Shown here: positions 1-14,002 of the stretch, piece by piece
Position numbering within the stretch: the first letter of the stretch is position 1
Layout: each line of letters begins with the position of its first letter
Virus record (IMG/VR): IMGVR_UViG_2695420617_000005
Location: 1-14,002 of that record
Source of the DNA: a virus
Lineage: Duplodnaviria; Heunggongvirae; Uroviricota; Caudoviricetes
Direction: 5' to 3' (one strand)
DNA: 14,002 bases
Translations under genes and position numbers: made by a program
Notes under the pieces: model-generated
The model's input: only the letters and a program-made list of their open reading frames with translations
What the model was told of the DNA's origin: nothing
The model's database searches: none

Positions 1-102
1 TCTTTTCCTTTACTTTCTTTTTCTTTTTTGTGTGTTCTGCCCTTCCTTTTTTTCCTTTTTTTTTTCCGCTTTCGGCGCCCCCCGAGATCTACCCCTCTCT
101 TT
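1..102. other. Low-complexity T/C-rich non-biological sequence (read-end junk) preceding an adapter
   Basis: Homopolymer-like T and C runs with no coding or structural logic, immediately followed by a library adapter; the ORF-track translation here (FLFFLFFF...) is meaningless. Confidence 0.6.
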
Positions 103-135
103 TCGTCGTCAGCGTCAGATGTGTATAAGAGACAG
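103..135 (+). other. Nextera/Tn5 transposase adapter ending in the 19-bp mosaic end AGATGTGTATAAGAGACAG
   Basis: tcgtcgtcagcgtcAGATGTGTATAAGAGACAG matches the Nextera read-1 adapter plus Tn5 ME as recalled, with one mismatch in the overhang; ME at 117-135. Genuine sequence starts at 136. Confidence 0.85.
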
Positions 136-279
136 GTTTTCGACGTTACACGCATGATTTTGTCAGCGAAAGAAGAGTTGGCTAATGAAGCGCATCCGAT
201 TGATGGCCTGTCTGGTGAATATGCGGAGAAATCCCTTGAAGAATGGGCGGAACAGATTCGCAAAGGAAGCAGCCAGTGA
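136..279 (+). CDS. 3' fragment of a CDS truncated by the contig/adapter boundary; hypothetical protein (C-terminal 47 aa)
   Basis: Open frame continuing from the adapter junction to TGA at 277-279 (VFDVTRMILSAKEEL...KGSSQ); N-terminus missing. Confidence 0.45.
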   Translation, partial: VFDVTRMILSAKEELANEAHPIDGLSGEYAEKSLEEWAEQIRKGSSQ

Positions 280-566
280 ATATCGACACGACCGTAACGA
301 TCGATACGCTCCTAAATACCGGTCTGGCACTTCTCGGTTGGCTTTACATCATGTCCCGCACATGGCGATGGCTGGGTTCCATTTTCCTAAAACAGTGGAA
401 AAAACGGCGCAAACAGGAACTACGCCAGAAGGCATTAGAAGCGTTCTATGACGCATTTGAGCTTAGCCGCATTGAACCAGGTACAACAGCCAGGATAGCG
501 ACAAAAGGCGACCTGATGATAGTGATGTTCCGACAGGAGAGAGCAGAGAAAGGGGAATCAGCATGA
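276..566 (+). CDS. Hypothetical small membrane protein (96 aa from a GTG start), one predicted TM helix then a basic tail
   Basis: GTG at 276 overlaps the upstream stop (GTGA) and is preceded by AAGGAAG at 263-269. Hydrophobic segment TLLNTGLALLGWLYIM followed by KQWKKRRKQ. Start could instead be ATG 243. Confidence 0.45.
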   Translation: MNIDTTVTIDTLLNTGLALLGWLYIMSRTWRWLGSIFLKQWKKRRKQELRQKALEAFYDAFELSRIEPGTTARIATKGDLMIVMFRQERAEKGESA

Positions 567-1297
567 AATTTTCCAAATTTTCTGAGTTGGTGAATCGTAT
601 TTTGTCCAACAACCACAGCCATCGTCGCGATATGGATGTAACAATCGTTGTTCATTCGCCTGGCAGCATTGGTTCAACACCTTCAGTTGAGGTTCAGTCA
701 ATTCACGCTGGTTTTGATTGGGATTCCGGGAAAGTGCTTATTTTCCCATCACAGCCACTGACCACGCTAACACCAGAACAGATTACTGATATCACTGATA
801 GTGTGCGCAAAGGTCAGTCTTGGCACGCATATCAGGAATACAAGAAGCATCAAGAGCAGTTGGAAAAATTGTCGATTGAACTGGATGCCGCAAAACAGCG
901 CATTGCAGAGCTGGAGGGTAATCGCACGGCGCTGGCAGTGGAGAATGAGCTGGCTCGTAAGGCAGTTCAGGCATTCTGCGATGTTGTTGGCGACAACACC
1001 GAGGTTATCGCTGAGGTGGTTGGGCGAGATGGCGTTCTGGTTATTTTGGAGGCCATGAAGGCAACAGGAAATATGCCAGCCACCGATGCTTTCCTGGCTG
1101 AAGTACGGGCGCAGGGGGTAGAGATGTACGCAGATAACCTCGACAACGTAGCAGGAGACGCAGAACGAGGTGGTTTTGATTATGCCGTTAAGTTTCTACG
1201 CAGTGAAGCGTCTAGTGTACGTTTGTTCGCCGACCAGCTTCGCAAAGGAGGCGACCAGTGGGTAAATCAAAATGCCAGGTTTATGGCAACAAGATAG
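563..1297 (+). CDS. Hypothetical protein, 244 aa, with a central predicted coiled-coil
   Basis: ATG 563 overlaps the upstream stop (ATGA). Heptad-like region EQLEKLSIELDAAKQRIAELEGNRTALAVENELARKA. No motif I can assign. Confidence 0.6.
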   Translation: MKFSKFSELVNRILSNNHSHRRDMDVTIVVHSPGSIGSTPSVEVQSIHAGFDWDSGKVLIFPSQPLTTLTPEQITDITDSVRKGQSWHAYQEYKKHQEQLEKLSIELDAAKQRIAELEGNRTALAVENELARKAVQAFCDVVGDNTEVIAEVVGRDGVLVILEAMKATGNMPATDAFLAEVRAQGVEMYADNLDNVAGDAERGGFDYAVKFLRSEASSVRLFADQLRKGGDQWVNQNARFMATR

Positions 1298-1512
1298 AAC
1301 CGTGTACGACCCTGGCAAAATCCCTTGAGCATGATGCTGAATACACGATGCGAAAAGGTCTGCTGATATACAAAATCTGGAATGAGAGTTTAACTCGCGG
1401 TCCTGATTTTGTGATGTTGCGTTCCGGTGAATTTTCTAAATTACCAGTTCGGGTTTCATTTTGTCCGTTCTGTGGTGAAAGTCTGAAAACGTGGGAGAAC
1501 AGAAATGAATGA
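1258..1512 (+). CDS. Hypothetical small zinc-ribbon-like protein, 84 aa
   Basis: GTG start with AAGGAGG at 1243-1249. Four Cys arranged C6, C16 ... C69-P-F-C72. Overlaps the 3' end of the previous gene out of frame. Confidence 0.5.
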   Translation: MGKSKCQVYGNKIEPCTTLAKSLEHDAEYTMRKGLLIYKIWNESLTRGPDFVMLRSGEFSKLPVRVSFCPFCGESLKTWENRNE

Positions 1513-1816
1513 AATTAAAGAAATACCAGTAGTACGTGATGAATATGGCTACTGGACGCATCCTGAATATGAAAAATTCTGTGACGGTCGGGAATATATT
1601 TCAACGGAAGAGTTTAACGCCTGGATGGAGGAAAATAATCTTCAATACGTCCTCTGCTTCAGAGATGAAGGATGTGCTGACCTTGATGCGTGTGATGCTG
1701 ATATTTCTGCATGGGAACCGGAACGACCAGAGGGCAATGGATGGTTTATTGGTTCAATACATGACACCGAAGATGGCCCGGTTTGTGTATGGCTGAGAAA
1801 TAAGGCCGAAGCATAA
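1505..1816 (+). CDS. Hypothetical highly acidic small protein, 103 aa
   Basis: ATG 1505 in an ATGAATGA overlap with the upstream stop. About 25 Asp/Glu versus about 8 Lys/Arg (net about -17), with Cys/Asp-rich stretch CFRDEGCADLDACDAD. Confidence 0.55.
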   Translation: MNEIKEIPVVRDEYGYWTHPEYEKFCDGREYISTEEFNAWMEENNLQYVLCFRDEGCADLDACDADISAWEPERPEGNGWFIGSIHDTEDGPVCVWLRNKAEA

Positions 1817-1920
1817 AGGCTATAAACCGACTAACAACTAAATACTGAAGATTTAAATCAGAAACGATTTTTATTAAATCCTTAACCGGAGGGATTCCTG
1901 CACCCTCAGAACATCAGGAG

Positions 1921-1938
1921 GCCGCCCGAAAGGGCGGT
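1921..1938 (+). promoter_or_regulatory. GC-rich hairpin (6-bp stem ccgccc/gggcgg, GAAA loop) between an AGGAGG motif and the start codon of the next ORF
   Basis: AGGAGG at 1916-1921, hairpin 1921-1938, ATG at 1944. No U-tract follows, so it does not look like an intrinsic terminator. Confidence 0.4.
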
Positions 1939-1943
1939 AAGAA

Positions 1944-2162
1944 ATGACTACATTATTCAGAAAAGAATATCCGCAAAAAAGTAGGGCGACAGAATTTTTG
2001 TTTCTCATTCTGTTTATCGTATTGATGATACCGATATCCCCTCTAATTTTTGTCTGGGCAATCGGGAAAATAATTGAGCCAGTTACTGAATTGTATAACG
2101 ACGTGGTATGGGCGTCATTCAACACACTGCACAATAAAATTAATCCGTATAAGGAAAACTGA
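1944..2162 (+). CDS. Hypothetical small membrane protein, 72 aa, single TM segment
   Basis: Hydrophobic stretch FLFLILFIVLMIPISPLIFVWAIG. Linear SD spacing is too long (22 nt) unless the hairpin brings SD and ATG together. Confidence 0.4.
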   Translation: MTTLFRKEYPQKSRATEFLFLILFIVLMIPISPLIFVWAIGKIIEPVTELYNDVVWASFNTLHNKINPYKEN

Positions 2163-2163
2163 T

Positions 2164-2427
2164 ATGGCAACTTTGACAAAAAAAGAACGGGCATGGTTGA
2201 ACGAATTACAGGAAGTTCTTGATCGCTGTCCATCACCGAAAAAAATTGGCTTTTACACCATTGGCGATAAAAGCATTTACCTGTATGACCTGCGCCGCAT
2301 GGATGAAATCATGGAGGCTCTTGATAATCGTTCGTCAATGGATTGGTGTGTTGCTGTCCATGATATGAATGCAGGGTTTGATGAAAAGATTTTGTTCCCC
2401 TCATCAGTTGAAAGCACTGCGGGTTAA
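2164..2427 (+). CDS. Hypothetical protein, 87 aa
   Basis: ATG 2164 two nt after the upstream stop, AAGGAAAA 8 nt upstream. The longer ORF-track version from 2074 is probably not the real start. Confidence 0.5.
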   Translation: MATLTKKERAWLNELQEVLDRCPSPKKIGFYTIGDKSIYLYDLRRMDEIMEALDNRSSMDWCVAVHDMNAGFDEKILFPSSVESTAG

Positions 2428-2437
2428 GGAGTAACAC

Positions 2438-3436
2438 ATGACCACTATTACCAAAGAACGTATTGAATTGTTCATTAAAAATCCGCTTGAAAACGGGCTT
2501 ACCCGTGGTGAACAAATGGAACTGGCACGGATTGCACTGGCATCACTGGAAGCAGAGCCTGTTCTGTATCAGTCCTGCACTCGTCCCACCTGGAATAGCG
2601 GTGTTCCGTGGACGGAATGGAAAGAACGAAGTCGTGAGTGCTACGAAGACGATTTGCGCTTTACAGACACGCCTGACCATGCCGGTTGGATATACAAATG
2701 TCGAAAACTATATACCACTCCGCCAGCGCCGATAGCGTTAGAGGCCATTGAAAACGCAATTGAATACATCCGCAGTATCGCTTTTCACATCGATGAAGAC
2801 GATTACCACGGCAAACATATTGCGTATTTCATGCAACAAGCATTGGCCTGGCTGGAAGGGCATTCATGCAGCGACGACAGACTGGGTAAAGCCGAGAATC
2901 AACCAGTACGCGGCAACCAGGCTGCCGAATCCAATCGCAGTAATGAGTGGACTGGCAATCCTGATATTGATAACGCCATCATCATGCTCGACCGCATAGA
3001 TACGCTGGAAAGTTGCGATGATGACCGTATTGAGGCGGTTAAGGCTGTTTTGCGTAGACTGGCTGGCAACTATCCGGATATTCCGGATAGTTCGGTGCCA
3101 GCGCCAGGAAAGGGCGTCACCGGTGAACGTATCCGCATTAAGCCGCATGTTTATCGCGAACTGGTTAACCGTCTCCACGATACAGCGATCAAGTGTGCTG
3201 GCACCCAGCAATTACGAGAAAGAATTAGCCGTGTTTTGGGCGACGTTATTACACCAGATCATCATAAACAAGCCGAGAAAAGTGGCCTGGAAAGGTGTCA
3301 CCTTGAGACGGCATTAAACATTAAGCCGGGGCATACGCTTGGCATTATTGATGCACTATTGGTTCATAAGATGGCCAGGGCTTTATTGCCGCTGGTGGCT
3401 GAAAAGCATGAGGCGGACCATGCCAACGAAAGCTGA
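2438..3436 (+). CDS. Hypothetical protein, 332 aa, acidic, no recognisable motif
   Basis: Strong RBS TAAGGAG at 2424-2430 with 7-nt spacing to ATG. Longest ORF in the left block. Confidence 0.65.
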   Translation: MTTITKERIELFIKNPLENGLTRGEQMELARIALASLEAEPVLYQSCTRPTWNSGVPWTEWKERSRECYEDDLRFTDTPDHAGWIYKCRKLYTTPPAPIALEAIENAIEYIRSIAFHIDEDDYHGKHIAYFMQQALAWLEGHSCSDDRLGKAENQPVRGNQAAESNRSNEWTGNPDIDNAIIMLDRIDTLESCDDDRIEAVKAVLRRLAGNYPDIPDSSVPAPGKGVTGERIRIKPHVYRELVNRLHDTAIKCAGTQQLRERISRVLGDVITPDHHKQAEKSGLERCHLETALNIKPGHTLGIIDALLVHKMARALLPLVAEKHEADHANES

Positions 3437-3704
3437 GTTACAGGCGCGCATAGAGATTCTTGAAAAAGAGAATGCGAGTCTAAAAGGAATGCTGGCACGG
3501 GCGGAAAGGGAATTATCAGGTAAATTATTGCCAGAAGAACTGCCACCAGCAGATATACCAGATCGAGTGTCCCAGTGGATGAAGTCTTTTGGTTTACCGT
3601 GGGAGGCTTTTTGGTGCTACGAGCATCGCAGATGGTGTGATGAACTTGATAGCAGTTTTCCCTACTTTGCGGAAGGGAACACTTGCCCTGAGTGTAGGAG
3701 GTAG
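3420..3704 (+). CDS. Hypothetical protein, 94 aa: N-terminal coiled-coil plus C-terminal zinc-finger-like motif
   Basis: ATG 3420 with GAGG 6 nt upstream, overlapping the 3' end of the previous gene. C-terminal CYEHRRWC...CPEC (C-x6-C-x17-C-x2-C). Confidence 0.5.
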   Translation: MPTKAELQARIEILEKENASLKGMLARAERELSGKLLPEELPPADIPDRVSQWMKSFGLPWEAFWCYEHRRWCDELDSSFPYFAEGNTCPECRR

Positions 3705-3708
3705 CGCG

Positions 3709-3969
3709 ATGTTTCGTCCTCGTCCAATACCGCCGAAAATAACTAATGGCTATCAGCCGAATACTCCAGAAATACAAGGGAGCGAGGGGCTTAAACCACC
3801 ACCAGCACCACGTATTCCGCCTGTAGCAAGGAGCGTATCATTACGACGAGAGTTAATATTAGCCTTGTCGCCCGTTCTGGCTGCCCGCCAGGATTGGGTA
3901 AGTAATGATGACCTGGCAGAAAAAATCACATCGCTGGTGGATAAAATTCTGCATAAAGCTGATCTCTGA
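3709..3969 (+). CDS. Hypothetical proline-rich protein, 86 aa
   Basis: AGGAGG at 3695-3700, 8 nt from ATG 3709. Pro-rich N-terminal half (RPRPIPPK...KPPPAPRIPP). Confidence 0.4.
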   Translation: MFRPRPIPPKITNGYQPNTPEIQGSEGLKPPPAPRIPPVARSVSLRRELILALSPVLAARQDWVSNDDLAEKITSLVDKILHKADL

Positions 3970-3979
3970 TCACCATGCT

Positions 3980-4013
3980 AAAATCCCCTCAATTCACAGA
4001 GGGGATTTTTGTC
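3980..4013 (+). terminator. Rho-independent terminator (11-bp stem, 8-nt loop, U-tract)
   Basis: aaaatcccctc (3980-3990) pairs with gaggggatttt (3999-4009), followed by TTTTTGT. Closes the upstream plus-strand gene string. Confidence 0.6.
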
Positions 4014-4014
4014 T

Positions 4015-4281
4015 ATGTTGTATAGAGTTTTATGGAAAAGCGTTATTGTCGGCGCGATACTGGCTATATCTGGGTGTGCAATGGTGCAATACAACGACGG
4101 TGAAAAGGTAAGCATACAGTCAGATGGTTGGTATGGCCTGGATAGCCTGCAAAAAACCGCAGATAAAGCCTGTCAGCAATATGGGAAGTCTAAAGCTGTA
4201 TATCAGCATAGCGCGAACGCTAATCCCCATCTCGCTCCTGGGTCGGGTGTTCAGAATACCATCTGGAAATGTGAGCTTTAA
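4015..4281 (+). CDS. Putative lipoprotein, 88 aa (signal peptide with lipobox ISGC)
   Basis: N-terminus MLYRVLWKSVIVGAILAISGC fits a signal peptidase II lipobox. Starts 2 nt after the terminator U-tract, with SD-like GAGGGG inside the terminator stem. Confidence 0.6.
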   Translation: MLYRVLWKSVIVGAILAISGCAMVQYNDGEKVSIQSDGWYGLDSLQKTADKACQQYGKSKAVYQHSANANPHLAPGSGVQNTIWKCEL

Positions 4282-4291
4282 ACGTGAGCAA

Positions 4292-4305
4292 CTGCAATAT
4301 TGCAG
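4292..4305. promoter_or_regulatory. Perfect 14-bp palindrome CTGCAATATTGCAG in the gap before the Toprim-like gene; candidate operator
   Basis: Exact dyad symmetry in the 48-bp intergenic gap. Not followed by a U-tract, so more likely a protein-binding site than a terminator. Confidence 0.35.
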
Positions 4306-4329
4306 CTAAAAGCCAGGAAGAACGGAATT

Positions 4330-4854
4330 ATGACAAAATTTGGAAAGCTGGAAGCTCATTTGCTAACTCGTAACTACCGCCATGATATACACCCATATAG
4401 ACAGTGGATCGATGAAAGTGAAGGAGTAGTTACATTCCCTCTATACAGGTTTGATGGGATGTTGGCTGGGTATCAGACATATAGACCAGGTGCTCCTAAG
4501 CAGCATAGCAATCCGAAGATGGCCCGGTATTTCACGCGATCACATGGCAGACAGTTACTTTGGGGAACCTATCTTCCTTTAAAAGATGGCCCAATATGGA
4601 TCACTGAGTCTATTTTTAAGAGCGCAGCTGTACACAACGCGGGCGGCAATTCGTGGGCGCTGTTAGGTTCGACTTTCTCCGCAGGATTACGCCGTCAACT
4701 TGCGATGCTGCCGTATGACTTTCGTGTAATAGGTGACAATGATGCGGCTGGTGAATTACTTGTGAAGTCTTTCGGAAAAGGTTTTGTGGCCCCGGATCTT
4801 GACGAGCTACAACCACATGAAGTGTCTCATTTGATTTTTAGCCATAGCCAATAA
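4330..4854 (+). CDS. Hypothetical protein with a Toprim-like motif pair, 174 aa
   Basis: AGGAAG 9 nt before ATG 4330. Conserved-Glu context WITESIF followed about 50 aa later by VIGDNDAAGE, the E ... DxD arrangement of DnaG-type Toprim domains. Called by eye, not by HMM. Confidence 0.55.
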   Translation: MTKFGKLEAHLLTRNYRHDIHPYRQWIDESEGVVTFPLYRFDGMLAGYQTYRPGAPKQHSNPKMARYFTRSHGRQLLWGTYLPLKDGPIWITESIFKSAAVHNAGGNSWALLGSTFSAGLRRQLAMLPYDFRVIGDNDAAGELLVKSFGKGFVAPDLDELQPHEVSHLIFSHSQ

Positions 4855-4870
4855 GCCTCCCTCCTCCATC

Positions 4871-4917
4871 AAGGCCACAATTTGTGACCTTAAACAATTT
4901 GTTTTCTGCTTTTTCTT
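4871..4917 (+). terminator. Possible weak terminator: imperfect 21-bp palindrome plus T-rich tract
   Basis: AAGGcCACAAtTTGTGaCCTT (4871-4891) then tttgttttctgctttttctt. Sits in the convergent intergenic region; could alternatively be a protein-binding dyad. Confidence 0.3.
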
Positions 4918-4980
4918 ATTTGAGGAAATAACGTTGTTGACAGCTAATAGGCTCGTTGTTGTTATACATGCCTGTATAGA

Positions 4981-5337
4981 TTATGACCGTAAATTATTAG
5001 CGGATTTTAAGCCATATTCACCGTTGTAGAAATTACTCATGTTCCATTCATTAGGAAGTTCTTTTCTGTCCAATGTATAGTGGCGCACGATATAACGATC
5101 TTCATCTTCTTCGATGGACAGGCGGACATAGCCAATGTGAATCACCGATACGGGCGGTGTTCGTATTGCATAGATGTCGCGGAGATATACCGGCAGCTCG
5201 ACAAATGCATCAGGTGCATCTGTGATGCTCGTTTTTTCACAGTATTCATATAACGCATCGTTGATATCGTTAAGAGATTCATGATCGTATATTTCCAGGT
5301 AATTACCGCGATCGCGATGGTACTCGATTTTAGCCAT
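4981..5337 (-). CDS. Hypothetical protein, 118 aa; distal gene of a two-gene minus-strand operon
   Basis: ATG directly abuts the upstream gene stop (TGAATG on the minus strand), with AGGGGA as RBS. Visibly AT-richer than its neighbours, with an acidic patch SIEEDEDRY. Confidence 0.6.
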   Translation of the reverse strand: MAKIEYHRDRGNYLEIYDHESLNDINDALYEYCEKTSITDAPDAFVELPVYLRDIYAIRTPPVSVIHIGYVRLSIEEDEDRYIVRHYTLDRKELPNEWNMSNFYNGEYGLKSANNLRS

Positions 5338-5922
5338 TCAAAATCCCCTGTTATCGTTTTGCATTTCTCTAATCCGGTTCAGAACTACTTCGTGCTGGAC
5401 TTGGATAGCGGCTTTTTCGTTTTCAAGCCGGGCAATAGACATCTCTAATTCTTTGCTGTACCAGGCGAGCTGGGCCAGGTTCATCCGGTTGTGGTCGAGA
5501 GTTGGAGACACTTCGACGCGATCCCTTTCTTCCTGCTTTAATGAGAAGAGATTCATCTCATCCCTTGAGGAAAATTCAGCAACAATTTCTTGTTGATGAT
5601 CCGGTCGCTGCGGCATCCTCGCCAGTATAAATGGCGGTTCTTTTGAAAACATGAATGTCGGTTCAGACCGTGTTTTTACCCAGCTTGCCTGCTGTCTTTC
5701 GGCAAGTTCACAGGCTTCATCATAGTTATCTGCCAAACAAAGCACGGATGGACGGTCCCACGCCCCACCATTCAGACAATAAACTACAATTTTCCCGTCA
5801 GGTTGTGTAACCCCATATGGATGGTCCCACCAGGCGTCCAGCTGAGCTTTAGAGCGTTTCTCGTTAGGAGTGCAGTCAAAATTTTTGGGCAATACAGGAT
5901 CGAGAGGAATGCGATTAGGCAT
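5338..5922 (-). CDS. Hypothetical protein, 194 aa; Cys-containing N-terminal domain and C-terminal predicted coiled-coil
   Basis: AAGGA RBS upstream of the minus-strand ATG at 5922. C-terminal heptad-like region LAQLAWYSKELEMSIARLENEKAAIQVQHEVVLNRIREMQ. Divergent from humD. Confidence 0.65.
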   Translation of the reverse strand: MPNRIPLDPVLPKNFDCTPNEKRSKAQLDAWWDHPYGVTQPDGKIVVYCLNGGAWDRPSVLCLADNYDEACELAERQQASWVKTRSEPTFMFSKEPPFILARMPQRPDHQQEIVAEFSSRDEMNLFSLKQEERDRVEVSPTLDHNRMNLAQLAWYSKELEMSIARLENEKAAIQVQHEVVLNRIREMQNDNRGF

Positions 5923-6058
5923 AGCTAATTCCTTATTAACTGATTGGCAACGAGGTTACGCTGATCCCGCGGTGATGAATAGTAGCAAAGCGCACAAAAA
6001 TCATCAGCGGTGGTTGATGTACATAACGCGTTTGCACCAAAGGTGCTTCTTTAATGTA

Positions 6059-6078
6059 TACTGTACGGATAAACAGTA
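6059..6078. promoter_or_regulatory. LexA (SOS) box TACTGTACGGATAAACAGTA about 20 bp upstream of humD
   Basis: Fits the CTGT-N8-ACAG core with TA flanks. A possible -10 TATACT (6057-6062) overlaps it; -35 assignment is uncertain. Confidence 0.7.
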
Positions 6079-6096
6079 TTTTTGAGGTAAAACGCT

Positions 6097-6486
6097 ATGG
6101 GTTTCCCTTCTCCTGCGGCGGATTATGTTGAAAGCCGAATTTCTCTTGATCAGCAGATAATTAGACATCCATCAGCAACCTACTTCATGCGGGCAGCTGA
6201 TAGCCATCACCGTGAGGGAATATTGCAGGGTGCTTTGCTGGTGGTTGATTCTTCGCTTACTCCAGTTGATGGTTCGCTGCTTGTGTGCGCTATGGAGGGT
6301 GAATATCGCATAAAGAGATACAGGAAGTATCCGCGCCAGCACCTGGAGGATTTAAGCACCGGGAAGAAAGAGGCGTTACCAGTAGATGACGATGGTTACA
6401 CGGGTAGTAATGCTGTTTTTGGTGTGATCACTCATGTCATCAATGATGCCCGGAGTGGGGAGTTTGATGATTGTCCGGTCATTTAA
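6097..6486 (+). CDS. humD: HumD, UmuD'-like translesion-synthesis accessory protein (129 aa)
   Basis: Begins MGFPSPAADYVE, i.e. at the position equivalent to the UmuD'-generating cleavage site (UmuD ...C/GFPSPAADYVE...). HPSATYF and Ser/Lys contexts conserved. GAGG RBS. Confidence 0.9.
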   Translation: MGFPSPAADYVESRISLDQQIIRHPSATYFMRAADSHHREGILQGALLVVDSSLTPVDGSLLVCAMEGEYRIKRYRKYPRQHLEDLSTGKKEALPVDDDGYTGSNAVFGVITHVINDARSGEFDDCPVI

Positions 6487-6558
6487 GCTGCAAAGTGCTG
6501 GTGCTTTATGCCTGTGAAGTTTATAATTGTGTACACATAACGAGTACACGAGGTGTTT

Positions 6559-6780
6559 ATGCAATCCATTAACTTCCGTACCGCGCGCGGCAACCTTTCT
6601 GAAGTGCTCAACAATGTTGAAGCCGGGGAAGAGGTTGAAATCACCCGCAGAGGCCGTGAGCCAGCAGTAATTGTCAGCAAGGCTACTTTCGAAGCCTACA
6701 AAAAAGCGGCGCTGGATGCTGAATTTGCATCCCTGTTTGACACCCTGGACTCCACCAACAAGGAACTGGTTAACCGATAA
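6559..6780 (+). CDS. phd: Phd antitoxin (73 aa)
   Basis: [49 protein letters not shown]... matches P1 Phd as recalled. TAATG overlap with doc. Confidence 0.95.
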
Positions 6781-7160
6781 TGAGGCATATATCACCGGAA
6801 GAACTTATTGCGCTTCATGATGCGAATATAAGCCGCTACGGCGGCCTGCCGGGAATGTCTGATCCGGGTAGGGCAGAGGCCATTATCGGGAGAGTTCAGG
6901 CCAGAGTTGCCTACGAAGAGATCACCGACCTTTTCGAAGTCTCCGCCACCTACCTGGTAGCTACAGCGAGAGGGCATATATTCAATGATGCCAATAAGCG
7001 TACCGCGCTAAACAGTGCGCTGCTATTTCTACGCCGTAACGGGGTGCAGGTATTTGATTCACCTGAACTGGCAGACCTTACCGTAGGCGGTGCGACTGGC
7101 GAGATATCTGTATCTTCTGTCGCCGACACGTTACGTAGATTGTATGGTTCTGCGGAGTAG
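6780..7160 (+). CDS. doc: Doc toxin, Fic-fold kinase (126 aa)
   Basis: [25 protein letters not shown]... with the Fic-type motif HIFNDANKR; matches P1 Doc as recalled. Confidence 0.95.
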
Positions 7161-7164
7161 ATTA

Positions 7165-7344
7165 ATGGCACGTAAATACAACAAATTGTCCCGTGAAGCG
7201 TTAAAGATGCTTCTTGATGGTGTGAGCCGCAGCGAGGTAAAGCAATACCTGGTTGGTAAGCAAATTGGTGCCAGGACCGCTATTGCTGTGTTATGCCGTC
7301 AGGAAATGGTTGTGCTTAAACAGAGAATGCTGGGCAGCAGATAA
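7165..7344 (+). CDS. pdcA: Small protein downstream of doc (59 aa), corresponding by position to P1 pdcA
   Basis: ATG 4 nt after the doc stop. Name assigned from recalled P1 gene order (doc-pdcA-pdcB-lpa), not from sequence recognition. Confidence 0.55.
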   Translation: MARKYNKLSREALKMLLDGVSRSEVKQYLVGKQIGARTAIAVLCRQEMVVLKQRMLGSR

Positions 7345-7371
7345 AGCCCAATCAGTGATGAAAGGTGTGAT

Positions 7372-8415
7372 GTGAAAGCCGTAATTACTCCCTTTGTACA
7401 AAAAGAGCTTGGCGTCGCCACATTCAAAGTGGATCAGGAAGTCAGAAAGCTGGTGGAGGCTGGCCGTAAATTTATTATGGAGCCGGTGCCGCGTGAGTTA
7501 ATCGAGCACATGGACGACGGCCTCGTTGTTTCCGAGCAAACTATGGCAACAAATGAGGCGTTGCAGCCGTTTTTTAACAGCGATGAACTGTTTCGCCGTA
7601 TTGGTGGAATTGACGCGCTGGTGGCGTGGTTGCGCAGGAAAGAGGGGCAATGCCAGGCCGCAGATCGTAGCTGGTGTGACAACCATATTGTCCACGCAGA
7701 ACGAGACAATAGCGCGGTGTTGTTGTGCTGGCATCACGATAACCATTACCGGATGCGTGGTTTTAATGAGTTGAAAGAAACGCTGCATAATAATCGCGTT
7801 AACTGGATACTGGATGTCGCCCGTCAGGAAATGGGGCTTTCAGATGGCCATGATTTAAGTATTCAGGAACTGTGCTGGTGGGCTTTCATGCGCAACATGA
7901 TGCACCTGATGCCGGAAGAAGTTTGCCGTATATCAATAAATAAGATGAAAGCCGCAACGCAGGATAGCGGACCTCTGAAAGAGGCGGATATTCGCCCGTA
8001 TGACGATCGCGCTACAGCATATGTTCAGATGATGGAAGAACGCGCCGCGCCGATGCGTGCAAAAGTATGCCCTGTGGATGTTGACTCCGACCCAAGTATG
8101 GCGCATTTCAAGATACCAAAACTTCAATCGCTAAAATTGCCCGAGTACATGGACTTTGTGGCTTCCCGTCCATGCTGTGGCTGTGGAGCTGCGGGAGCTG
8201 GCGCTCACATTACGCCTTATATCGTTCGTCATAGTCGATTATGCGCGCATGACATTTATGCTATTCCTCTGTGCCAGTCATGCCAGCGTGATATTGAGCG
8301 TGACCGCGATAATTGGGAGAAGACGCACGGTAGGCTGGCGATGCATCAACGATTGTTCTTTGATTACGCGCTTGGAGTCGGCGCTATCACAAGTCATTCG
8401 TCGAGTGTTAGATAA
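7372..8415 (+). CDS. pdcB: pdcB-position protein, 347 aa, Cys/His-rich C-terminal region
   Basis: GTG start with AAAGGTG RBS (start uncertain). C-terminal cluster RPCCGCG...H...RH...LCAHD...PLCQSCQRD and upstream CWHHDNHY. Name from recalled gene order only. Confidence 0.65.
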
Positions 8416-8416
8416 A

Positions 8417-8433
8417 ATTGCTCTAATGTATTG
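8417..8433 (+). promoter_or_regulatory. C1 repressor operator (ATTGCTCTAATGTATTG) overlapping the lpa promoter -35
   Basis: 14/17 match to the recalled P1 C1 operator consensus ATTGCTCTAATAAATTT, with the first 11 positions exact. Confidence 0.6.
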
Positions 8434-8458
8434 CTATTTCTTTAATCGAGGGTATTAT
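8431..8458 (+). promoter_or_regulatory. Putative sigma70 promoter for lpa (-35 TTGCTA, 16-bp spacer, -10 TATTAT)
   Basis: TTGCTA at 8431-8436 and TATTAT at 8453-8458, about 45 bp upstream of the lpa start. Confidence 0.45.
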
Positions 8459-8503
8459 ATTCGACGTTGATTAGTTGACATGGGCTAATCAGTAGGTGAC
8501 AGG

Positions 8504-8956
8504 ATGTTACTTAACTGGCAGGGACGCCACTTCATGGAAATAAATCACTCACGAATAACATCGTACGAGATTGCGGATTACATGATCCGTACTAAATCTC
8601 TTCTATCAGCGAAAGAACTCGCAGCAATTCTTGAAAAGGAATACCCGCATCTGGATGTCGATAAGCGCGATGTTTATCTGCGCTTAAAGGCTATCGCTGT
8701 GTCTAAGTATTCGTCTGTTTTGATTGATGACAGTACACGCCCACGTAGATTTCAGATCCACTCTCTGAATCCTGAATTCTTTCGCCGCAGCCGCGCTCCG
8801 CGCCGGTTTGATGAAAAACTCCAGAACGAACTCTATATGACGCAGGACGAAAAGGAACGCCGGGAGCACCAGCCTTGGGTGATGGCGCGTCAACTTTTCA
8901 ATAAGGTGGTCCGTCAGCACCGTCATTACGGTAATGCCACATCCGCACGTATCTGA
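8504..8956 (+). CDS. lpa: Lpa, late promoter activator (150 aa)
   Basis: Position between pdcB and pacA with a C1-operator-controlled promoter, as expected for P1 lpa. Start could be ATG 8504 or the in-frame Met at 8534. Confidence 0.75.
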   Translation: MLLNWQGRHFMEINHSRITSYEIADYMIRTKSLLSAKELAAILEKEYPHLDVDKRDVYLRLKAIAVSKYSSVLIDDSTRPRRFQIHSLNPEFFRRSRAPRRFDEKLQNELYMTQDEKERREHQPWVMARQLFNKVVRQHRHYGNATSARI

Positions 8957-8966
8957 TTGATTGCTT

Positions 8967-8984
8967 GCCCGTTCCGGGCCTTTT
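8967..8984 (+). terminator. Possible short intrinsic terminator after lpa (GCCCG-ttc-CGGGC + CTTTT)
   Basis: 5-bp GC stem with 3-nt loop followed by a short T-run; weak by stem length. Confidence 0.35.
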
Positions 8985-9042
8985 GACATGTGACTTTCGT
9001 TACCCTCGCGTCAAAAAGAGTTTTATACGAAAGGAAGCATAA

Positions 9043-10236
9043 GTGACCTGGGACGATCACAAGAAGAATTTTGCTCGCCTGGCGCGAGATGGTGGTTACA
9101 CCATCGCACAATATGCCGCCGAGTTTAATCTCAACCCAAACACCGCACGTCGTTATCTCCGTGCATTCAAAGAAGACACCGGAACAGCGGACAGCCGTAA
9201 GCCAAATAAGCCTGTCAGAAAACCACTAAAAAGCATGATCATTGATCACGCTAATGATCAACGTGCAGGTGATCACGTTGTGGCTGAAATGGCTGAAAAA
9301 CAAAGAGTTAATGCTGTTGTCAGTGCCGCAGTCGAGAACGCGAAGCGCCAGAATAAGCGCATAAATGATCGTTCTGATGATCATGACGTGATCACCCGCG
9401 CCCACCGGACCTTACGTGATCGCCTGGAACGCGACACCCTGGATGATGATGGTGAACGCTTTGAATTCGAAGCTGGCGATTACCTGATAGATAACGTTGA
9501 AGCGCGGAAGGCCGCGCGCGCTATGTTGCGTCGGTCCGGGGCTGATGTTCTGGAAACCACTCTTCTGGAAAAGTCTCTCTCTCATCTCCTTATGCTGGAG
9601 AACGCCAGGGATACGTGTATTCGCCTGGTGCAGGAAATGCGCGATCAGCAAAAAGACGATGATGAAGGTACTCCGCCTGAATACCGTATCGCGAGCATGC
9701 TAAACAGCTGTTCCGCGCAGATAAGCAGCCTGATCAACACCATTTACAGCATCCGGAATAACTATCGAAAAGAAAGCCGGGAGGCGGAAAAGCACGCTTT
9801 GTCTATGGGGCAAGCTGGCATTGTTAAGCTGGCATACGAACGAAAGCGTGAAAATAACTGGTCAGTGCTGGAAGCAGCTGAATTCATCGAGGCGCATGGC
9901 GGGAAAGTGCCGCCCCTGATGCTGGAGCAAATCAAAGCCGATCTGCGTGCTCCTAAGACCAATACCGATGATGAGGAAAGGCAAACAGCCGTCGGTGGCC
10001 CTTCTCTTGAAGATCTGGACAAAGTTGCGCGAGAACGGGCCGCCAACCGCCGCGCGGATGCCGCATTGTGGATTGAGCAGCGTAGGGAAGAAATCGCCGA
10101 TATCGTTGATACAGGCGGTTATGGAGATGTTGATACTGAAGGTGTATCAAACGACCCATGGCTGGAACAAGACCTGGACGAAGACGAGGAGGAAGACGAA
10201 GAAGTTACCCGCAAGCTATACGGGGATGATGATTAA
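9043..10236 (+). CDS. pacA: PacA, terminase/pacase subunit (397 aa); contains the pac site
   Basis: GTG start with AAAGGAAG RBS. Begins [28 protein letters not shown]..., length 397 aa, acidic C-tail; pac hexamer array lies inside the gene. Confidence 0.9.
9236..9394. other. P1 pac packaging site: 4 + 3 TGATC(A/G) hexamers, each with a Dam GATC
   Basis: TGATCA at 9236, 9243, 9255, 9270; TGATCG at 9366; TGATCA at 9378, 9389. Matches the known pac architecture; cleavage region is the roughly 90-bp spacer between the clusters. Confidence 0.85.
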
Positions 10237-11720
10237 TGGCCAGAAGTTGCGTAACGGATCCACGTTGGCGCGAGCTGGTGGCGCTATATCGTTATGACTG
10301 GATTGCGGCCGCTGATGTTTTGTTCGGCAAAACACCTACCTGGCAGCAGGATCTGATTATTGAGTCTGTGCAGGAACAGGGTAGCAAGACATCTGTTTCG
10401 TCTGGTCACGGTACCGGGAAATCAGACATGACTTCTATCATGATCATGTTGTTCATAATCATGTATCCCGGTGCCCGCGCTATTATCGTTGCGAACAAAA
10501 TTCAGCAGGTAATGACCGGTATATTCAAGTACATCAAGATAAACTGGGCTACTGCCACCAGCCGTTTCCCATGGCTTGCTGATTATTTTGTTCTGACAGA
10601 AACCGCTTTCTATGAGGTTACTGGTAAAGGTGTATGGACTGTAGTACCGAAGGGCTTTCGTCTGGGAAGTGAAGAAGCTCTCGCCGGTGAACACGCAGAT
10701 CATCTTCTGTATATTATCGATGAAGCCTCCGGTGTCAGTGATAGAGCTTTCGGTATCATCACCGGTGCTCTTACCGGACAGGATAACCGCATCTTATTAC
10801 TGTCACAGCCTACACGCCCAAGCGGCTATTTCTACGATACACACCATAAACTGGCCAAGCGTCCTGGTAACCCTGATGGCGTTTATACGGCGATCACGCT
10901 TAACAGTGAGGAATCACCGCTGGTAACGCCAGCATTTATCAAAATGAAGCTGGCGGAGTACGGCGGGCGTGATAACCCTATGTACATGATTAAGGTACGC
11001 GGCCTATTCCCTAAATCACAGGATGGCTTCCTTCTTGGACGTGATGAGGTTGAACGTGCAACGCGGCGGAAAGTCAAGATTGCAAAAGGATGGGGCTGGC
11101 TTGCATGTGTGGACGTTGCTGGTGGTACGGGACGGGATAAGTCCGTTATCAATATCATGATGGTGTCCGGCCAGCGAAATAAACGCCGTGTAATCAACTA
11201 TCGAATGCTGGAATACACAGACGTTACAGAAACGCAGCTTGCCGCCAAAATTTTCGCAGAATGTAATCCTGAGCGATTCCCAAATATCACCATAGCGATA
11301 GACGGCGATGGCCTGGGTAAAGCAACGGCGGATCTGATGTACGAGTATTATGGTATTACCGTACAGCGTATACGCTGGGGTAAAAAGATGCATAGCCGTG
11401 AAGATAAGAGCCTGTACTTTGATAAACGTGCTTATGCCAACGTTCAAGCCGCAGAGGCCGTAAAATCTGGTCGTATGAGACTGGATAAGGGTAATGAAAC
11501 TATTGAGGAAGCGTCGAAAATCCCTGTAGGGATTAACTCCGCAGGTCAATGGAAGGTGATGAGTAAGGAGGATATGAAGAAAAAACTCAACCTGCACTCA
11601 CCAGACCATTGGGATACATATTGTTTCGCTATGCTGGCGGATTATGTTCCCCAGGATGAAGTGCTTAGCGTCGAAGACGAAGCGCAGGTTGATGAAGCTC
11701 TGGCATGGCTTAATGAATAA
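10236..11720 (+). CDS. pacB: PacB, terminase large/ATPase subunit (494 aa)
   Basis: TAATG overlap with pacA. Walker A-like P-loop [10 protein letters not shown] near the N-terminus; length 494 aa. Confidence 0.9.
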
Positions 11721-11744
11721 CTCATTGACCATGCCGGATAGAAA

Positions 11745-12596
11745 CTATTGCGCGCTTTCGGGGTTGTCGTTTACCGGCTGCCCCTTCTTAGTTTTACGGC
11801 TGCGCGTAACTGATGCGGCTGATTTGACCTTTTTCTCTTCGCGAGTGATGGCAATTTGTTTTTTTACATTTTCAATATCTGCCAGGCGATATATTTTTGC
11901 CTGCGGCCAGCGGTCGCAGATGATCGGTTCTATGGAGTCATAAAGGCTAAATTTTGCTTTCTCGAATTCACCGTTGATGATGATTCCATCACGGAGAGTT
12001 TCATCGCAGATAAACACACCACACAGCGGCACATGGTAACTAACTGATTTACCATCATTGTAGTTAGGGCTACTGGAAATGTAATGGACGCGTAGCATTG
12101 TTTCGCTAAAGCCGTGTACACGCATACGGAATTTTTCATCCTCCGGGTACTGCTTCATTAGCTCTTTTGTTGCTTCCAGGTTCTCTATGTATTTCGCACT
12201 GTGCTCATTGATCCCCGCGCTTTTCTGGATGCGAATGTCCTTATCAATCAGATGAATAATGCGGCCAGCGGTCATGTTGACGCTGTTCACAGCTTCTGTC
12301 TGATAAGTCGTAACCTTACGCACACCGCGAAGGATGTTAGGCACTGGATATAAAATAGTCTTTGGGATATTGAGGTCTGGGTACTGTTCCAGTTCCCGCG
12401 CCATTAAAGTCCATTTATCAATTTCAGCCTGAATGCTGTCCGTTTCTTTGAACGGCAGAACGACAACCGGGCGAACAGGACGACCGTCGCTGGCGGCATC
12501 AACGTGTTGGGCGCGTGCAACAGCTTTTTTTAGAAAGAGATCCCTGAAGCTGACGAACTCCTGGTACAGTTGTTCGCCGTAGACATAATTTATCAT
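11745..12596 (-). CDS. c1: C1 master repressor of lysogeny (283 aa)
   Basis: MINYVYGEQLYQEFVSFRDLFLKK..., 283 aa, GGAGGAGG RBS. Convergent with pacB, adjacent to coi and the operator cluster. Confidence 0.9.
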   Translation of the reverse strand: MINYVYGEQLYQEFVSFRDLFLKKAVARAQHVDAASDGRPVRPVVVLPFKETDSIQAEIDKWTLMARELEQYPDLNIPKTILYPVPNILRGVRKVTTYQTEAVNSVNMTAGRIIHLIDKDIRIQKSAGINEHSAKYIENLEATKELMKQYPEDEKFRMRVHGFSETMLRVHYISSSPNYNDGKSVSYHVPLCGVFICDETLRDGIIINGEFEKAKFSLYDSIEPIICDRWPQAKIYRLADIENVKKQIAITREEKKVKSAASVTRSRKTKKGQPVNDNPESAQ

Positions 12597-12619
12597 TGAT
12601 CCTCCTCCAGAATTGACAT

Positions 12620-12660
12620 GGCCAACAACTCACAGCGGATTACACTGGGAGTTGTTGGCC
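12620..12660. repeat. 12-bp perfect inverted repeat (GGCCAACAACTC ... GAGTTGTTGGCC, 17-nt loop) in the coi-c1 intergenic region
   Basis: Arms at 12620-12631 and 12649-12660, about 24 nt upstream of the c1 start codon on the transcribed strand; no U-tract on either strand. Confidence 0.5.
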
Positions 12661-12690
12661 ACCATTATAGAAGGATCCAACGAAAATAAT

Positions 12691-12707
12691 AGATTTATTA
12701 GTGCATT
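12691..12707 (-). promoter_or_regulatory. C1 operator-like site abutting the coi stop codon (candidate c1 autoregulatory operator)
   Basis: Minus-strand reading AATGCACTAATAAATCT, 14/17 to the recalled consensus. Confidence 0.45.
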
Positions 12708-12916
12708 TATTGTGAGTCTGGCTGGTTAGTGGCCATGAGATATTCGATTGTGTCAGTGAGATCATCCAGGTCGTCTTGGGTGATGCGGTACTCCTGATTG
12801 GATATCTTTGAGTAGTGTTCAGCAATGGCGCGGGCAGCGTCGGTTTCGGCGGGGTCTACAGATAAAGCGTTAGAGCAATGTCTAACGTCGTCGATGGTTG
12901 GTGGAATGAAAGCCAT
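12707..12916 (-). CDS. coi: Coi, C1 inactivator (69 aa)
   Basis: 69-aa ORF immediately upstream of c1 on the same strand, GAGG RBS; matches the P1 immC arrangement. Confidence 0.85.
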   Translation of the reverse strand: MAFIPPTIDDVRHCSNALSVDPAETDAARAIAEHYSKISNQEYRITQDDLDDLTDTIEYLMATNQPDSQ

Positions 12917-13154
12917 AATTATGCCTCACTGTATTGACAACACAGAGCCTGAAGCTCTGACCTACTGTTTCACCCATGATCCATGCTGGGGTAATCTAAC
13001 AACATTGCGCTGTGTGTAAGATGAGCAATGCATAGCTGTAATGCCGTTGTATAAGGTTTCCCTGTTTGCTCATTTCCTTCTGAGCCGCTCTACAACGCTG
13101 AAGACACATTAAATAGTGAATCCAAAGTCGTATTACGAAACGGCGGCAAAACTA

Positions 13155-13171
13155 TAATTTATTAGAGCAAT
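13155..13171 (-). promoter_or_regulatory. C1 operator (immC Op99-type), minus-strand ATTGCTCTAATAAATTA
   Basis: 16/17 match to the recalled consensus, upstream of the imcB/imcA-coi-c1 transcription unit. Confidence 0.65.
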
Positions 13172-13237
13172 TGTCAGACAACTATGAAAAACAATCCAGT
13201 TTTTGGCTGGTGGAGTGGGATTTTTCTCTCAAAATTT

Positions 13238-13254
13238 ATTGCTCTAATAATTCT
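13238..13254 (+). promoter_or_regulatory. C1 operator (immC Op99-type), plus-strand ATTGCTCTAATAATTCT
   Basis: 13 consecutive consensus positions; opposite orientation to the 13155 operator, about 67 bp away. Confidence 0.55.
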
Positions 13255-13297
13255 TGATTTTTATGCGCAGCTGGACGTAAACTCCTCTTCGGACCTA

Positions 13298-13331
13298 ATA
13301 ACTTCGTATAGCATACATTATACGAAGTAAA
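13298..13331. other. loxP site for Cre: 13-bp arm, 8-bp spacer GCATACAT, second arm with two outer-position differences
   Basis: ATAACTTCGTATA-GCATACAT-TATACGAAGTaAa versus canonical ...TATACGAAGTTAT. Spacer centre lies exactly 436 bp upstream of the cre ATG. Confidence 0.85.
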
Positions 13332-13402
13332 CTTAAGGGTTATTGAACATGATCAATTTACCTGTAAATCCATACAGTTCAATACCTTATCAGGTCAAAT
13401 AG

Positions 13403-13424
13403 TGATCACTTGATCATTTGATCA
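13403..13424. promoter_or_regulatory. Three TGATCA (Dam GATC) hexamers at 8-bp phasing in the cre upstream region
   Basis: TGATCA at 13403, 13411, 13419; the same hexamer as in pac. Dam-sensitive control of cre promoters is described for P1. Confidence 0.5.
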
Positions 13425-13429
13425 AGGTT

Positions 13430-13488
13430 GCGCTACGTAAAATCTGCGAAATGTTGGCAGTGTTAGTGCTCCAGATTTCGCGTAGCGC
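13430..13488. repeat. Imperfect 17-bp inverted repeat (15/17) with about 25-bp spacer upstream of the small ORF and cre
   Basis: GCGCTACGTAAAATCTG (13430-13446) and CAGATTTCGCGTAGCGC (13472-13488). Confidence 0.4.
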
Positions 13489-13520
13489 ACTTAGCACCAC
13501 CAATCAATCAGAGGTGAAAA

Positions 13521-13742
13521 ATGGGATATTCAGCTGCTAAAGTGTCCACTCATCTTGAGCTTGAGAAAAACCGTGGTTACTGGCGGGCAAAAGGGTTTGA
13601 GCGTGATAGTTACCAACTGTCATTATCTCGCGGTGAAGAAAAAATAGAACGCACGCGCGGTCGCTGGCGTTTCTATGACGAGAACCATAAACAGGTAAAG
13701 GCAGAGCCGATCCTGTACACTTTACTTAAAACCATTATCTGA
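13521..13742 (+). CDS. Small basic ORF (73 aa) between loxP and cre
   Basis: Strong SD AGAGGTGA about 5 nt before ATG 13521; stop TGA 13740-13742 is 7 nt before the cre ATG. Lys/Arg-rich, Trp/Tyr-containing. I do not recall whether an annotated P1 gene sits here. Confidence 0.5.
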   Translation: MGYSAAKVSTHLELEKNRGYWRAKGFERDSYQLSLSRGEEKIERTRGRWRFYDENHKQVKAEPILYTLLKTII

Positions 13743-13749
13743 GTGTTAA

Positions 13750-14002
13750 ATGTCCAATTTACTGACCGTACACCAAAATTTACCTGCATTACCGGTCGAT
13801 GCAACGAGTGATGAGGTTCGCAAGAACCTGATGGACATGTTCAGGGATCGCCAGGCGTTTTCTGAGCATACCTGGAAAATGCTTCTGTCCGTTTGCCGGT
13901 CGTGGGCGGCATGGTGCAAGTTGAATAACCGGAAATGGTTTCCCGCAGAAACTGAAGATGTTCGCGATTATCTTCTATATCTTCAGGCGCGCGGTCTGTT
14001 TG
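13750..14002 (+). CDS. cre: Cre tyrosine recombinase, N-terminal 84 codons (truncated by the window end)
   Basis: MSNLLTVHQNLPALPVDATSDEVRKNLMDMFRDRQAFSEHTWKMLLSVCRSWAAWCKLNNRKWFPAE... matches Cre as recalled; 436 bp from the loxP centre. Confidence 0.9.
   Translation, partial: MSNLLTVHQNLPALPVDATSDEVRKNLMDMFRDRQAFSEHTWKMLLSVCRSWAAWCKLNNRKWFPAETEDVRDYLLYLQARGLF

Follow-up and report, generated by a model that had tools for sequence, protein, structure and literature searches.

The locus and its twelve Chi sites

The stretch of phage DNA analysed here, hereafter the window, is 14,002 nucleotides long (positions 1 to 14,002 of IMG/VR record IMGVR_UViG_2695420617_000005, class Caudoviricetes) and contains twelve copies of GCTGGTGG, the octamer known as Chi, at which the enterobacterial RecBCD enzyme changes from degradation of DNA to its recombination. 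The abundance, distribution and orientation of these sites are the subject of this report. Positions 136-13998 of the window are ~100% identical to the Escherichia coli plasmid p28Eco12 (NZ_CP038506.1), a circular replicon of 92,027 bp, and phages P1, P7 and SJ46 show 94-98% identity to the window over most of its length. The identical replicon occurs in E. coli strains, and the hosts of its relatives are Escherichia and Salmonella. Judged from these alignments, the window is part of a P1-type phage living as an E. coli plasmid, that is, a phage-plasmid.

The gene order humD-phd-doc-pdcB-lpa-pacA-pacB-c1-lox-cre is the same as in P1. In full, the window carries accessory genes followed by an lxr-like gene, humD, phd, doc, pdcA, pdcB, lpa, pacA, pacB, c1 (on the minus strand), coi, lox, cra and the start of cre. 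The terminase genes occupy 9043-11720 on the plus strand (pacA, 9043-10236; pacB, 10236-11720), and packaging, according to the literature, proceeds in the direction of these genes. The packaging site, pac, is located within pacA at 9236-9394 on the plus strand and consists of four TGATCA hexamers (9236-9275) and three TGATCR hexamers (9366-9394) flanking the cleavage region. This 4+3 site, together with the P1 gene order and sequence around it, places the window among the P1-type phage-plasmids. When the cleavage position annotated for P1 (pacA +275..284) is carried over, the pac cut falls at ~9318-9327. The lox site (13298-13331, plus strand) is found 4.0 kb downstream of this cut; it has two mismatches to canonical loxP, both located outermost in the right arm, where GAAGTAAA replaces GAAGTTAT.

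A pattern search of the window revealed exactly twelve copies of GCTGGTGG, nine on the plus strand and three on the minus strand, each at the coordinate given in the original prediction that had drawn attention to them. The first four (3391-3933) belong to an accessory module that P1 lacks and that is partly shared with phage D6. The site at 3391..3398 (plus) is on the coding strand of a pmgU-like open reading frame (ORF) in the frame xxG CTG GTG Gxx; P1, P7 and SJ46 have GTTGGTGG here, and D6 has Chi. The site at 3543..3550 (minus) is in unannotated or intergenic DNA and is common to the D6 module. A small plus-strand ORF holds the next two, one on its template strand at 3799..3806 (minus; Pro-Pro-Ala) and one on its coding strand at 3933..3940 (plus).

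The site in humD (6097-6486), at 6237..6244 (plus), is kept in P1, P7, SJ46 and D6. Three plus-strand sites lie in pdcB (7372-8415; DUF968): 7449..7456, which is lost in SJ46, and 7617..7624 and 7874..7881 (the latter in a Cys-Trp-Trp frame), both of which are kept in P1, P7 and SJ46. This trio, contained within 430 bp (7449-7881) and wholly kept in P1 and P7, is situated 1.87, 1.71 and 1.45 kb upstream of the pac cut and is the nearest Chi to its unpackaged side; pdcB is annotated as an HNH endonuclease in relatives. The remaining plus-strand sites upstream of the cut are 3.09, 5.39 and 5.93 kb away, and only two minus-strand sites are present there.

Downstream of the cut, pacB contains three Chi. 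Those at 10274..10281 (plus) and 10555..10562 (minus; template strand) are extra sites of this lineage relative to P1: both are found in SJ46 and neither in P1 or P7, which at 10274 have GCTTGTGG. The one at 10555 lies 1.23 kb from the cut; no other Chi in the window has the orientation to act on RecBCD that enters at the packaged pac end. The third, at 11118..11125 (plus; Ala-Gly-Gly frame), is kept in P1, P7 and SJ46, as is the last site of the window, 13206..13213 (plus), which is intergenic, between two C1 operators (13148-13171 and 13238-13261) and 92 bp to the left of lox. Eight of the nine plus-strand sites are on the coding strand of plus-strand genes, and six of these eight use the CTG|GTG (Leu-Val) frame.

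Enrichment, clustering and orientation

Strong over-representation of Chi, as originally predicted, was confirmed against every null model used. The random expectation of ~0.2 per strand that accompanied the prediction is right for equal base frequencies; dinucleotide shuffles of the window give 0.34 Chi (maximum 2), and Markov models of orders 2-5 give 0.7-3.6. For a codon-aware null we permuted synonymous codons within each gene, by which every protein and each gene's codon usage are kept. The window then yields 3.6 +/- 1.0 Chi with a maximum of 7 in 1000 trials, a figure that includes its two immovable intergenic sites, compared with the 12 observed. The whole of p28Eco12, joined from two halves and entered with 100 annotated coding sequences, carries 52 Chi, 32 on the plus strand and 20 on the minus strand, against 11.9 +/- 2.1 (maximum 19 in 1000 trials), its immovable intergenic sites again being counted in the expectation. 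The enrichment therefore holds genome-wide as well.

Chi is the commonest octamer of the plasmid, the next octamer that does not overlap it being present in 19 copies. The mean copy number of the 24 single-mismatch variants is 0.67 in the window and 5.4 in the genome, as against 12 and 52 for exact Chi; in the window they are on average 18 times rarer. The E. coli chromosome has ~1 Chi per 4.6 kb. At the host chromosomal density a 13.9-kb stretch should hold ~3.0-4.4 sites (Poisson P = 7e-5 to 2e-3), and the density in the window is ~4 times the host average. These are exact octamers in excess of base, oligonucleotide and codon composition, as befits the Chi of enterobacterial RecBCD. The excess over the codon null is 11-fold for template-strand sites and 6-fold for coding-strand sites, which points to selection on the DNA and not on translation.

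A second measure is the use of protein-permitted positions, defined as those at which a choice of synonymous codons could create a Chi without changing the encoded peptide. The plasmid has 119 of these, of which 46 carry Chi (5.5 expected), and the window 16, of which 10 do (1.2 expected). D6, a distant relative with different genes upstream of pac, possesses 53 Chi, again the commonest octamer, and uses 52 of its 136 permitted positions. As a host baseline we made the same count in two samples of E. coli K-12, each 50 kb long (100000-149999 and 1000001-1050000; only 100 kb in all), where 32 of 109 permitted positions are used (29%), 29/82 on the coding strand and 3/27 on the template strand. 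Use in the window (63%) is above this level (p = 0.02). Template-strand positions are used at 37% in the plasmid versus 11% in the host (p = 0.018), and at 59% near pac (p = 1.4e-4). Host Chi use itself seems to be more than independent codon usage would give, and is nearly all on the coding strand; Subramaniam and Smith (bioRxiv 10.1101/2021.07.08.451572) attributed host Chi frequency to codon or dicodon usage.

The Chi sites of the plasmid are not spread evenly. Their circular mean is 3.4 kb downstream of pac, close to lox at pac+4.0 kb (R = 0.485, Rayleigh p = 2e-6), and 47 of the 52 are within +/-27.6 kb of pac. Counted in 9.2-kb bins from the pac cut in the packaging direction, the numbers are 10, 14, 5, 0, 1, 2, 2, 6, 4 and 8. 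The same gradient is seen in permitted positions: 27/41 are used downstream of pac, 15/31 (48%) upstream and 4/47 far from it (near versus far, p = 2.6e-8; upstream versus far, p = 1e-4). Within 27.6 kb of pac the used fraction is 58%, significantly above the host (p = 2e-4), and in the remaining, pac-distal 37 kb it is 8.5%, below the host (p = 0.004).

This gradient bears on the proposal that the octamers are a by-product of protein composition, of codon usage, or of drift towards host oligonucleotide usage in a replicon that has long lived as an E. coli plasmid, with no phage-specific role. The Leu-Val frame of most coding sites fits such a by-product, as does the 29% use in the host, over which the plasmid-wide figure of 39% is not significantly raised (p = 0.16). 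The codon shuffles do not fit it, however, nor does the enrichment of template-strand and intergenic sites or the density of the window, and uniform drift cannot produce a gradient that spans both sides of the host level within one replicon. The shuffles and the gradient relative to the two host samples lead us to reject codon usage and host drift as sufficient causes; they are largely refuted, and an origin of this kind is highly improbable.

The original prediction had also attached meaning to a strand bias. The rule on which it relied is sound, in that a plus-strand Chi acts on RecBCD heading towards lower coordinates, and the ratio of 9:3 is as counted. The ratio is nevertheless indistinguishable from 1:1 (two-sided binomial p = 0.146), as is that of the genome (32:20, p = 0.126); both orientations are abundant and near-random, as in Chi-rich phage-plasmids of the P1 type. 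It is also what gene orientation predicts. Coding sites in the window divide 8:2, where the codon-preserving null gives ~4:1 (1.29:0.33), and of the sites that the window's proteins permit, Chi occupies 8 of 11 on the plus strand and 2 of 5 on the minus strand (p = 0.30). Nor does the plus:minus ratio differ between the two sides of pac, being 12:6 upstream and 17:12 downstream (p = 0.76). The accessory segments, which provide the most independent data on orientation, are balanced (2:2 in the segment of the window that P1 lacks and 1:1 in its P1 counterpart). Upstream of the D6 pac, the two orientations have equal used fractions (9/18 and 2/4), a test limited by the position of that pac, which was assumed by analogy to be at the corresponding place in pacA because D6 pacA has no P1-type TGATCA hexamer cluster. 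Neither the binomial tests, the codon null, the use per orientation, the upstream/downstream comparison, the accessory segments nor D6 support the strand bias as a signal. It is gene orientation plus chance, and no feature in its own right.

We may still ask whether the plus excess is itself selected, such that it stops RecBCD moving from the pac end to lower coordinates and thereby protects or recycles the unpackaged side or the concatemer behind it. Six plus-strand against two minus-strand Chi precede the cut in the window, and the enrichment of the upstream arc relative to the far region is something that circularisation of injected DNA, discussed below, does not cover. Selection for one orientation is hinted at only over the 15.6 kb upstream of pac, where plus sites use 8/13 permitted positions and minus sites 1/7 (p = 0.07). 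The homologous segments of P1, P7 and SJ46 have ratios of 10:2, 7:1 and 9:2, though most of these sites are shared, and D6, with orientation read in the equivalent sense, shows 10:3 (about 3:1) across the 16 kb upstream of pac. But genes upstream of pac run towards it in both the P1-like phages and D6, and the coding-strand preference predicts the ratio seen. Given this, the non-significant 9:3, the equal use in D6, the lack of an upstream/downstream difference and the balanced accessory segments, selection of the plus excess is unlikely.

A further possibility is that orientation follows replication, the plus bias arising from a fork that crosses the window from the plasmid origin. On the E. 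coli chromosome, Chi occupies the leading strand and is directed towards the origin. The whole window has positive GC skew, which fits the plus strand being the leading strand for a fork from oriR/repA at 72-73 kb of the plasmid record. A switch of Chi orientation at oriR/repA and at the opposite point was sought in this one genome and not seen: the two halves have ratios of 21:12 and 11:8, both plus-biased. Replication likewise does not account for a non-uniform distribution centred on pac and lox, or for the near-random orientation in the literature. A replication-linked arrangement of the chromosomal type is accordingly rejected, and we regard this explanation as most improbable.

A probable role for Chi at the packaging ends

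We think it probable that the twelve octamers are genuine Chi of a P1-type phage-plasmid, kept dense by selection on the DNA rather than on the proteins, and that they serve recombination by RecBCD and RecA at packaging ends. Each would be predicted to stimulate RecBCD/RecA recombination in an orientation-dependent manner. The data presented here establish the identity of the replicon, the enrichment, its independence of codon usage, the clustering around pac and the lack of a meaningful strand bias; the dependence on these enzymes, the direction of packaging and the mechanism are inferred from the literature.

The P1 genome was reportedly stated by Lobocka et al. (2004) to be particularly rich in Chi. 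Subramaniam and Smith (bioRxiv 10.1101/2021.07.08.451572) found 50 Chi in its 94.8 kb, of which the top strand carries 31, and Chi to outnumber every other octamer. The density of the sites increases toward the genome ends, i.e. around pac, and, compared with E. coli Chi, they are less bound to ORFs and the CTG|GTG frame. The same study notes that these features recur in P7, D6 and NGUA22, where orientation is near-random, that P1 is packaged rightward from pac for ~four headfuls, and that its yield is ~20-fold lower in recA, recBC and Chi-recognition recC mutants. Its authors proposed that Chi is selected to promote RecBCD-dependent circularisation of injected DNA. P1-type phages lack a general recombination system of their own, and their growth needs RecA and RecBCD (PMC12315714; bioRxiv 10.1101/2021.07.08.451572). 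A Pfam scan of only 10 poorly annotated ORFs of the window revealed no recombination or RecBCD-inhibitor domains, with DUF968 (pdcB) as the sole match. The Chi content of P1 is again remarked on by Zheng et al. 2025 (PMC12315714) and in a P1 phagemid paper (PMC10028697). Since Subramaniam and Smith (2021/22) and Zheng et al. (2025) have published on them, the Chi richness, the clustering at pac and the model of circularisation at packaging ends are already known for P1, P7 and D6, and the link to pac-generated ends in the original prediction is in essence the published hypothesis.

In this scheme headfuls would be packaged from the unique pac, and linear, terminally redundant DNA would be injected. 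Host RecBCD would load at the double-strand ends of the injected DNA, and at ends made in packaging, and would degrade the DNA until it met a Chi from the 3′ side of GCTGGTGG, upon which RecA would be loaded on the 3′ tail. The tail might then recombine with the redundant copy at the other end, which circularises the DNA, or with sister copies, which maintains the concatemer. Chi in both orientations would be useful because the ends face both ways, and the concentration of Chi in the pac/lox arc would be where packaging-generated ends fall. In the window, RecBCD that starts from the right-hand cut of the first headful could be met by the plus sites at 10274, 11118 and 13206, and RecBCD that enters at the packaged pac end would find its first active Chi in the minus site at 10555, 1.23 kb away.

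The suggestion that the sites relate to pac-generated ends is plausible; pac is in the window, the Chi of the plasmid are centred 3.4 kb from it, and the explanation agrees with that published for P1. The geometry is different from the one first proposed, in which the plus sites as a group would protect or recombine linear DNA with its free end to the right. With packaging rightward, the three plus sites to the right of pac would serve RecBCD from the right ends made by headful cuts, whereas the six to the left face the unpackaged side of the pac cut.

If a headful of ~105 kb is assumed (112% of P1), a 92-kb genome would have a terminal redundancy of ~13 kb. On this assumption the redundant ends of headful 1 would contain 9 plus and 7 minus Chi and those of headful 2 would contain 7 plus and 5 minus, and the nearest active Chi would be 0.2-1.7 kb from each redundant end.

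Several observations weigh against the reading we prefer. The redundant ends of headfuls 3 and 4 would be nearly without Chi (1 plus and 0 minus, and 1 plus and 1 minus, respectively). Eight of the twelve sites in the window lie on the upstream side of pac, where no early headful has its terminal redundancy, and the circularisation model leaves this cluster unexplained. The redundancy of the first headful includes lox, so that Cre could circularise the DNA without Chi. Across the plasmid as a whole, the use of permitted positions is not significantly above that of the host, and the host samples themselves use 3.6 times more of these positions than codon usage predicts, which implies that part of the Chi signal is host-like background. 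Finally, conservation of Chi beyond that of the surrounding sequence was not seen in the comparison with P1, in which six of the nine alignable sites of the window are intact, compared with ~5.5 expected at 94% identity. Individual Chi sites turn over among the relatives, and their density is maintained.

As to the upstream cluster, RecBCD entering the unpackaged pac end would meet a plus-strand Chi within 1.5-6 kb. The cluster might then rescue that side of the cut by making the end recombinogenic and able to rejoin another concatemer, and a genome-length piece too short to fill a head would be saved. We offer this as a speculative possibility, rather doubtful at present. A duller alternative is that the cluster may be a legacy of ancestors with an inverted pac module, as in D6. 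The pac sites of D6 and NGUA22 are inverted and would use the other side (bioRxiv 10.1101/2021.07.08.451572).

Dense Chi near ends could instead mainly limit the degradation products of RecBCD, and in this way reduce the acquisition of spacers by CRISPR systems or some other end-triggered defence. In E. coli, naive acquisition of spacers draws on the products of RecBCD, with Chi setting its bounds, and the enrichment of both orientations near packaging-generated ends would, by inference, fit this role. The literature on P1, however, records a need for RecA as well as RecBCD in growth, which indicates recombination rather than mere protection, and we consider a mainly defensive function very unlikely.

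The Chi array of the plasmid has close counterparts in other systems. P1, P7, D6 and NGUA22 are like the window plasmid in replicon type, gene order, Chi as the top octamer and a density of ~1 per 1.8 kb, and P1 further resembles it in using both strands (31:19 in P1, 32:20 here) and in being denser in Chi around pac. The LLS-class lambdoid phages, which have no recombination module and abundant Chi (Zheng et al. 2025, PMC12315714), likewise rely on host RecBCD/RecA and have Chi enriched near the RecBCD entry end. They are of the cos type, and almost all their Chi have a single active orientation and lie near the right end, whereas the window plasmid has pac/headful packaging, ends that face both ways and enrichment in both orientations. 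The E. coli chromosome shares the octamer and the enzyme with the plasmid and has Chi above codon-usage expectation in the two 50-kb samples. It differs in its strong coding-strand preference (29/82 vs 3/27), its replication-tied orientation and its lower density; in the plasmid, template-strand positions are used as frequently as coding-strand ones and density peaks around pac. Dabert et al. (1992), on the protection of rolling-circle plasmid multimers from RecBCD by Chi, reportedly described a comparable effect, in which a correctly oriented Chi makes a linear tail or end resistant or recombinogenic; the sites in that system are engineered, single and on small plasmids, in contrast to the natural, dense array in two orientations on a 92-kb phage-plasmid.

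For a phage-plasmid of clinical E. coli, these data bear out the published view of P1: lacking a recombinase of its own, the phage appears to enlist host RecBCD through a genome laden with Chi, whose density is greatest at the packaging ends. With ~60% of permitted positions near pac in use, it is among the clearer cases of selection for an 8-base DNA signal overriding codon choice. The practical bearing is on P1 transduction and phagemid design, and little is conceptually new; what is added here is the test of permitted positions, the host baseline, and the flagging of the upstream cluster as unexplained.

The accessory region and other observations

The first 135 bases of the window are not phage DNA. 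They consist of a T/C-rich low-complexity run followed by an error-laden Illumina P5/index/Nextera adapter (...CGAGATCTAC..CTCTCT..TCGTCGTCAGCGTCAGATGTGTATAAGAGACAG); homology to P1-like plasmids begins at base 136, and positions 1-135 look like untrimmed adapter at a contig end. From 136 to 5355 there is a mosaic accessory region standing in for the pmgT-hot segment of P1. It holds lambdoid-type genes (ead/Ea22-like, DUF4752, DUF4014 and a toprim-domain protein), shows 94% identity to phage D6 at 2724-3705, and has partial matches in 3792 of 5426 complete E. coli genomes. Its Chi are unevenly placed, with none in 136-3390 and four within 3391-3940.

The second commonest octamer in the window is GCAGATAA, with 8 copies (6 plus, 2 minus) where 0.57 are expected; these are at 1130, 4159, 5726 (minus), 6153, 7337, 8674 (minus), 9717 and 12006. 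The plasmid contains 16 copies, half of them inside the window, and their number is perhaps due to chance among ~33,000 octamers. The flanks of the Chi sites, and likewise those of GCAGATAA, were compared in search of a longer motif and have nothing in common.

A tight cluster of Dam sites (TGATCActTGATCAttTGATCA) occupies 13350-13424, between lox and cra/cre. With one TGATCA at 13350 it resembles the pac hexamers, and it may provide methylation-sensitive control of cre expression.

Outside the window, in the first half of the plasmid, a 6.8-kb darB-like methylase/helicase gene (24732-31499) carries 11 Chi, 6 on the coding and 5 on the template strand, and falls in the predicted terminal redundancy of headfuls 1-2. 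In D6, where darB is upstream of pac, the gene has 5 Chi on its coding strand and 2 on its template strand. In a few places two Chi of opposite orientation are only 14-15 bp apart (GCTGGTGG...CCACCAGC), namely at 2963/2978 and 88995/89009 of the plasmid record and 83737/83752 of the P1 record. Such pairs could form hairpins with stems made of Chi; one is intergenic and is kept in P1.

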